A DNA stretch of 64,000 nt. Origin: a virus. Under the pieces are notes generated by a model. It worked only from the letters and a program-made list of their open reading frames with translations, was not told the origin of the DNA and searched no databases. A program made the translations under genes and the position numbers. The stretch covers positions 1 to 64,000 of IMG/VR virus record IMGVR_UViG_3300015360_000024; one strand, given 5' to 3'. Shown here in pieces: positions 43,107-43,205 of this stretch (within the stretch, counting starts at the first letter, position 1; each line of letters begins with the position of its first letter).

Positions 43107-43205
43107 ATTTGGAGTGCGCATGGTGAGTTCCTTGGAGTTCGAGAAGACCTGCTTACCGTTGCTCCCTTCCGGGCCTGGCGGGGTTCACAGGAAGTAGCCA
43201 CCCTA
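43107..43205 (-). ncRNA. ffs: small bacterial SRP RNA (4.5S)-like
   Basis: Core 43190-43148 CCUG-UGAAC-CCG-CCAGG-CCC-GGAA-GGG-AGCAA-CGG-UAAG-CAGG equals domain IV with GGAA tetraloop and CAGG/AGCA loop; ends uncertain. Confidence 0.8.

Follow-up and report, generated by a model that had tools for sequence, protein, structure and literature searches.

A truncated SRP RNA hairpin with a predicted Ffh-binding tip in a phage tRNA array

Within a long array of tRNA genes, the phage studied here encodes a 44-nt hairpin, and comparison with cellular genes confirms its homology to domain IV of bacterial signal recognition particle (SRP) RNA. It is the complete, predicted Ffh-binding tip of that RNA, with the tetraloop, both internal loops and three short helices, and without helix 5. 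Judging from its pattern of conservation, the hairpin is maintained by selection as a module of ~44 nt. Drawing on sequence and on analogy with truncated E. coli RNAs, we give a probability of about one half to the reading that the phage makes a truncated Ffh-binding SRP RNA, kept by selection, which captures host Ffh and FtsY more than it substitutes for 4.5S RNA. The analysed DNA (the window) comprises the first 64 kb of a virus record of 193,958 bp, which is rated 91% complete in IMG/VR.

Domain IV without helix 5

The hairpin occupies positions 43148-43191 on the minus strand, the strand of all 44 tRNA genes, and reads CCUGUGAACCCCGCCAGGCCCGGAAGGGAGCAACGGUAAGCAGG in the 5' to 3' direction from 43191 to 43148. 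An earlier note on this DNA had quoted for the span 43107-43205 a string running from CCUG through UGAAC, CCG, CCAGG, CCC, GGAA, GGG, AGCAA, CGG and UAAG to CAGG, and had placed it in an intergenic slot of the tRNA array. The string is indeed read at 43148-43191, inside that span, in a slot of 186 nt between a tRNA-shaped RNA (end near 43233) and an ORF starting at 43045. From the base upwards, the hairpin consists of the lower helix CCUG/CAGG, the asymmetric loop (5' UGAAC, 3' UAAG), the helix CCG/CGG, a C.A closing position, the symmetric loop CAGG/AGCA, the helix CCC/GGG (CCC-GGAA-GGG, 43164-43173) and the GGAA tetraloop (43167-43170), the last being identified from the sequence and the Rfam alignment. 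The assignment of the whole element to SRP RNA domain IV (helix 8 tip) draws on sequence, the Rfam alignment, RNAfold and covariation. RNAfold recovers the helices when the hairpin is folded in isolation. The wider 116-nt stretch is no more stable than its shuffles (z = +1.54), and the SRP hairpin is missing from its minimum free energy structure; homology and covariation, and not folding energy, are thus the basis for the structure.

A search with the Rfam model of bacterial small SRP RNA, the check that the earlier note had suggested, supports the identification: RF00169 (Bacteria_small_SRP) matches 43126-43208 on the minus strand with 42.1 bits against a gathering score of 40, a threshold passed only marginally (cmscan, with an E value of 1.2e-5 when the 64-kb window is searched and of 8.5e-9 for the whole 194-kb genome). 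Model positions 24-66 supply nearly the entire score, and the well-fitting part of the hairpin corresponds to positions of about 24-66. Outside 43148-43191 the full global alignment is poorly supported: in the outer stem, 15 consensus positions are deleted and 6 pairs are non-canonical. In the closest hairpin-bearing relatives, L004/L008, the model matches positions 24-66 only, as a local match of 40.7 bits; since the hairpin alone already reaches this score there, the flanks in the window add about 1.4 bits. Neither Rfam nor a hairpin-only covariance model (R1) revealed a second SRP-type copy in the genome.

Several hallmarks of the family are found in the hairpin. The GGAA (GNRA) tetraloop is closed by C-G pairs, the symmetric loop 5'-CAGG/3'-AGCA, which is the main site for the Ffh M domain, is exact, and the asymmetric loop with its flanking helices is present, the same motif being carried by cellular genes. 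The 20-nt core CCAGGCCCGGAAGGGAGCAA occurs exactly in >120 cellular genomes from many phyla, as does the C.A closing position of the symmetric loop, and the 34-nt centre GUGAACCCCGCCAGGCCCGGAAGGGAGCAACGGUAAG (GUGAAC to UAAG) is identical in cellular SRP RNAs. All of the six or seven cellular copies of the same core that were checked are bona fide SRP RNA genes, 95-100 nt long, with full-length scores of 54-76 bits, and the window falls 12-34 bits below them. Given the core found in >120 cellular genomes and the compensatory conservation in related phages, the match is beyond chance. The core is common to too many phyla for a host to be inferred from it.

Absent from the window is the long helix 5, in which the 5' and 3' ends come together and which bears the distal GTPase-docking site. 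Cellular copies extend beyond the hairpin into a basal helix, where a GUGCCG-type distal motif is found about 16-20 nt past the hairpin; the window has no conserved motif of this kind. A GUGCCG at 43066-43071 was considered as a distal site and rejected as a chance occurrence, as it is 77 nt away and missing from relatives. Thus, domain IV is shared with bacterial small SRP RNA (4.5S, ffs; RF00169), including the 34 nt identical to cellular genes, whereas only ~44 nt are well formed here against about 95-115 nt in cellular RNAs. Of the proposal that the phage encodes a 4.5S RNA, the homology to domain IV, the phage-borne nature of the element and its position in the tRNA array stand; a complete 4.5S RNA does not, the basal helix 5 and the distal docking motif being absent. 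The hairpin belongs to an established RNA family, of which it is a shortened version carried by a phage and probably put to a different use.

Recurrence and covariation in phage tRNA arrays

In the closest hairpin-bearing relatives, L004/L008, 42 of the 44 hairpin bases are kept, and the two differences from the window are the two partners of a single pair in the lower helix, which changes from C-G to U-A. The locus is syntenic, with a tRNA-shaped RNA, a promoter-like site, the hairpin, an element resembling a ribosome-binding site (RBS) and a homologue of the downstream gene P0001 that has 60% protein identity only. The flanks are much less similar: the spacer of the promoter-like site is identical at 9 of 17 positions and the 8 nt before the hairpin at 3 of 8, and the stretch after the hairpin differs in length (12 nt in the window versus 27 nt in L004/L008).

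Scanning IMG/VR with the pattern CAGGNCCGGAAGGNAGCA returned 44 stretches. About one third of these are short hairpins or full genes in the tRNA arrays of large phages, on contigs of 41-497 kb that vary considerably in GC content and flanking sequence, and most of the remainder look like host-type full-length ffs genes or unstructured chance matches in coding sequence. Among the carriers, a record of 435,804 bp shows terminal repeats, with a completeness rating of 100%. Where other phages carry a mini hairpin, a tRNA gene of the same orientation is found 7-59 nt away, and tRNA-processing enzymes would be expected to release the hairpin there. In two of these phages, L020 and L039, a tmRNA gene also lies within 2 kb of the mini hairpin. 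Full-length SRP RNAs matching the whole model are also found beside phage tRNA genes, at L010:8566-8658 (497-kb contig, 57.7 bits) and L019:1923-2018 (290-kb contig, 58.7 bits). These are phage-borne and share the same core pattern with the hairpin, but they include the basal helix.

Covariation was assessed on 12 array-borne phage copies, 11 of them distinct, with ten further distinct copies from unrelated contigs among them. In this set, the helices on either side of the fixed core covary: 89.6% of the cells are paired and 21 cells are changed on both sides. The observed covariation score was reached by none of 500 shuffles, and the signal collapses when the partners are slid by 1-3 columns. 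The search pattern fixes the loops and the tetraloop, so that their invariance arises by construction and carries no weight. By contrast, the apical pair, left free in the pattern, is a standard pair in every copy (CG, GC, AU or UA). The closing position of the symmetric loop is either U.G or C.A among the phage copies. Conservation in close relatives, recurrence in unrelated phages and covariation together argue for selection on the hairpin.

The hairpin was compared by blastn with 50,697 deposited phage records. Two matches were obtained, both to 'Acinetobacter phage MD-2021a', and no isolated phage was matched at that sensitivity. One of the matched records, L167 (CAKLQF020000006.1, 207 kb), was examined as a possible phage hairpin and rejected. 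Its ffs-like match is surrounded by lpxD-fabZ-lpxA, ybgF and recA; the presence of lpxD-fabZ-lpxA and recA suggests that the record is bacterial chromosome filed as a phage and that the match is a host ffs. Among the same 50,697 records, neither the 4-kb neighbourhood (megablast) nor P0001 (tblastn) found a match. Likewise, no report of a phage-encoded SRP RNA was found in the full-text literature searched, with targeted look-ups in PMC7162821 on huge phages, PMC7824862, a comparative review of jumbo phages, and PMC9569102 on mycobacterial tRNA/ncRNA genomes; the sole link between phages and ffs in that literature is ffs as an attachment site (PMC12540744).

Host Ffh and FtsY as predicted partners

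Neither an Ffh M domain (SRP_SPB, PF02978) nor an SRP54-type GTPase (PF00448) was found in the phage genome, and five other carrier records, including the 435,804-bp complete genome and the 497-kb record with a full-length SRP RNA, are also without SRP_SPB. The element thus differs from bacterial small SRP RNA also in being encoded by a phage without Ffh or FtsY, and any function must therefore run via host Ffh and FtsY. The M domain of Ffh is described as binding the tip-proximal loops of SRP RNA in PMC5454536 and in bioRxiv 10.1101/378745, the latter citing Ataide 2011. In E. coli, FtsY first contacts the GGAA tetraloop (PMC5454536, PMC11404819), and the Ffh-FtsY pair then moves to the distal stem, where the GTPases are activated and cargo is handed over (PMC5454536). 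According to bioRxiv 10.1101/378745 (citing Ataide 2011), shortening of the distal stem by >14 bp abolishes targeting, and over-expressed SRP RNA variants without the docking stem are lethal to E. coli, whereas the wild-type RNA is harmless. The toxic variants were asymmetric, misfolding truncations and not a clean hairpin.

Close counterparts of the phage hairpin are laboratory fragments of 4.5S domain IV and distal-stem truncations of E. coli 4.5S RNA, which are alike in size class and in content (Ataide 2011, cited by 10.1101/378745; 41-nt tetraloop RNA, PMC11404819). In vitro, it is the tip by itself that binds both Ffh and FtsY, and in the truncations the docking site is lost (10.1101/378745 citing Ataide 2011; PMC11404819). 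The laboratory fragments are engineered, whereas the phage hairpin is natural and conserved.

On this basis, the hairpin would be expressed together with the tRNA/Y-RNA cluster, its own putative promoter (TTGACA-N17-TAGGGT) being the probable start, and would fold into the domain IV structure, a step shown by covariation. Its loops, identical to those of cellular SRP RNAs, would then bind the M domain of host Ffh, as the identity of the site suggests, and the GGAA tetraloop would presumably still recruit FtsY. In the absence of helix 5 and the distal site, the Ffh-FtsY pair would be unable to relocate for GTP hydrolysis and hand-over. By extension from the E. coli truncation data, host Ffh and FtsY would be diverted or locked, and the targeting of host membrane proteins would be dampened or redirected. 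As the docking site is absent, such capture appears likelier than replacement of 4.5S RNA. Among the functions raised in the earlier note, titration or redirection of Ffh would accordingly seem the best fit and plain back-up of 4.5S RNA the poorest, since the basal helix and the distal docking motif are missing; as for the idea of EF-G binding, nothing in the sequence bears on EF-G. A bolder version, possible but doubtful in our estimate, is an RNA 'poison pill': hairpin produced in bulk from the tRNA cluster would load host Ffh and recruit FtsY without GTP hydrolysis, so that host targeting would be stalled or re-routed.

The strongest competing explanation, though we consider it unlikely, is that the hairpin works as a substitute, that is, as a minimal SRP RNA which would keep Ffh folded and FtsY-competent when host 4.5S RNA stops being made or is destroyed in the course of infection, allowing phage membrane proteins to be inserted. 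The elements for Ffh binding and for tetraloop-accelerated assembly with FtsY are all present. Furthermore, the full-length versions beside tRNAs in L010 and L019 fit a role in supply at least there, and the occurrence of full-length and mini forms, tRNAs and tmRNA (L020, L039) suggests a continuum of such 'supply' genes. However, E. coli 4.5S RNA is stable and in excess over Ffh, and a close relative, L168, is without the hairpin. Moreover, the distal docking site that is absent here is needed in E. coli (PMC5454536; 10.1101/378745, citing Ataide 2011).

Genomic setting and remaining explanations

ARAGORN identifies 44 tRNA genes between 33.6 and 55 kb, all on the minus strand. The hairpin is the last RNA of a sub-cluster comprising tRNA-Pro, tRNA-Leu, two tRNA-Ile and a tRNA-shaped RNA that ends in CCA near 43233. 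The latter is one of three tRNA-shaped RNAs of ~130 nt (43233-43366, 44148-44275 and 44292-44418, all on the minus strand) with acceptor stem, D and T arms and, on at least two of them, an encoded CCA. Each carries a conserved insert of ~55-60 nt, GUUCGCGCAAGCGAGCCGAC ... AUGGUUACC, and the homologues in L004 and L168 keep the insert hairpin, with a UUCG loop in L004 and a GCAA loop in L168. A TROVE/Ro60 protein is encoded at genome positions 173561-174439 on the plus strand (127 bits), and the three RNAs are likely Y-RNA-type partners of Ro60. Other RNAs in the array include a tRNA with a four-base anticodon (taag; ARAGORN, 38823-38900, minus strand) and a 113-nt tRNA-like gene with a large insert (Rfam, 39029-39141, minus strand). 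In another phage tRNA array, the archaeal LSU rRNA model aligns locally and weakly, over its positions 1181-1232, with L032:1066-1115 (22.4 bits, E = 0.015). We take these model positions to be the L11/GTPase-associated-centre region, and the L032 sequence may be another rRNA-fragment mimic.

A promoter-like sequence, TTGACA-N17-TAGGGT, is located at 43200-43228 on the minus strand and would start transcription about 4 nt before the hairpin. Its two hexamers are conserved and its spacer is variable: both hexamers are kept in L004/L008, and L168 has TTGACA-N17-TAAGGT. The promoter-like pattern occurs 3 times in the window, where 0.45 occurrences would be expected, and TTGAC(A/T)-N16-18-TAnnnT has 11 matches in the genome against 4.2 in shuffles. 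The same motif recurs at 55017 (minus strand), directly ahead of the tRNA-Met at 54982 that opens the array, and at genome position 173174 (plus strand), before a sequence resembling a Y-RNA handle upstream of the Ro60 gene. Around the hairpin, a scanner based on the E. coli consensus predicted neither a promoter nor a minus-strand terminator; the assignment as a promoter follows from the conservation of the hexamers and not from the scanner. With no terminator after it, the hairpin may never exist as a free 44-mer. The sequencing runs found to contain the sequence, from microbial-mat and other metagenomes, are of DNA only.

Downstream of the hairpin, an element CCAAGGAA-N6-ATG(CG) (43119-43135, minus strand) is conserved in the window, L168 and L169, whereas the stretch separating it from the hairpin differs among the three in both length and content. 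The element looks like a ribosome-binding site and the start of a short, poorly conserved ORF. This ORF has 36 codons from an ATG at 43121 (43011-43135, minus strand) and overlaps the start of P0001 in another frame, and only its first residues, M-R-x-x-x-E, are common to the three relatives. P0001 itself (276 aa; 42215-43045, minus strand) begins about 100 nt past the hairpin and is possibly co-transcribed with it. It has no Pfam or PHROG match and no hydrophobic segment discernible by eye, and its homologues keep synteny in L168, L169 and L170.

This arrangement raises a second alternative, namely, that the hairpin is a cis-acting 5' leader, the 5'-terminal structure of the P0001 mRNA, which would stabilise the message or tether it to Ffh without any free small RNA. 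A conserved promoter-like site upstream, an RBS-like element and an ORF downstream and no terminator between them are what such a leader would have, and the architecture is the same in L004/L008. Nevertheless, we regard this explanation as quite improbable. In other lineages the hairpin is flanked by tRNA genes and no ORF follows it, exact Ffh-binding loops would be superfluous in a structure that only stabilises, and P0001 is without membrane or secretion features. The comparison with L168 (IMGVR_UViG_3300037339_000563), the closest relative by P0001 (70% identity), also speaks against it. The tRNA-shaped RNA, promoter-like site, RBS-like element and P0001 homologue are all retained in L168, but the slot of the hairpin is taken by an unrelated sequence of ~85 nt (L168:1324-1410) with a predicted long stem, CUCGGUC...GGCCGAG. 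The replacement has no Rfam match at E up to 5 and may be another RNA module. As the slot can be filled by a different sequence, the hairpin is dispensable, and as the gene and the signals persist without it, the hairpin is an accessory cassette and not a fixed part of a P0001 leader.

A third explanation, which we hold to be very unlikely, treats the hairpin as a decoy or spare part that would soak up or replace the target of a host defence nuclease or sensor acting on the SRP RNA tip. It is modelled on phage tRNAs, which have been proposed to replace host tRNAs cut by anticodon nucleases (PMC10264068). The hairpin is co-located with tRNAs, tRNA mimics and Y RNAs in a genome that also encodes Ro60, and close relatives differ in whether they carry the hairpin, a typical feature of conflict genes. 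However, no nuclease or defence system directed at SRP RNA is known to us, none was found in the literature searched, and nothing in the locus indicates one.

Finally, the hairpin is hardly to be taken for an inert leftover, either a decaying host ffs fragment captured with tRNA genes or an attP-type ffs fragment, even though cellular ffs often adjoins tRNA genes (L148, L128, L058) and phage integration into ffs is documented (phiEf11; PMC12540744), because 42 of 44 bases with one compensatory pair are kept between diverged flanks, the hairpin recurs independently and with covariation in unrelated phages, and both of its arms are complete where an att core would be one-sided. The attP variant was rejected on these two arms and on the lack of a tyrosine integrase (Phage_integrase, PF00589) in the 91%-complete genome, in a search limited to that family. 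In both cases the phage sequence is identical to part of ffs, but the att core of phiEf11 is a one-sided 27-nt segment beside an integrase (PMC12540744), whereas the element described here is a complete covarying hairpin inside a tRNA array. As for its origin, co-capture of ffs with tRNA genes is plausible, given that the two adjoin in several cellular genomes.

The hairpin resembles the T4 species 1 and 2 RNAs, phage tmRNA and phage Y RNAs (PMC4201824) in being a small stable-RNA gene among phage tRNAs, and all of these are presumably released by tRNA-processing enzymes. It differs from them in RNA family and in its predicted partner, Ffh instead of Ro60 or SmpB.

The SRP is an essential and universally conserved machine, and we are aware of no description of a phage factor that acts on it. 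The hairpin makes phage manipulation of co-translational membrane targeting directly testable: an RNA that keeps the tip predicted to bind Ffh and FtsY and drops the GTPase-activating end would amount to a natural separation-of-function allele. Should the doubtful 'poison pill' version hold, host take-over would be achieved by an RNA mimic of a housekeeping RNA and not by a protein. Together with the neighbouring tRNA-shaped, likely Y RNAs, the hairpin suggests that phage 'tRNA arrays' may be toolkits that mimic protein-binding sites of host housekeeping RNAs.
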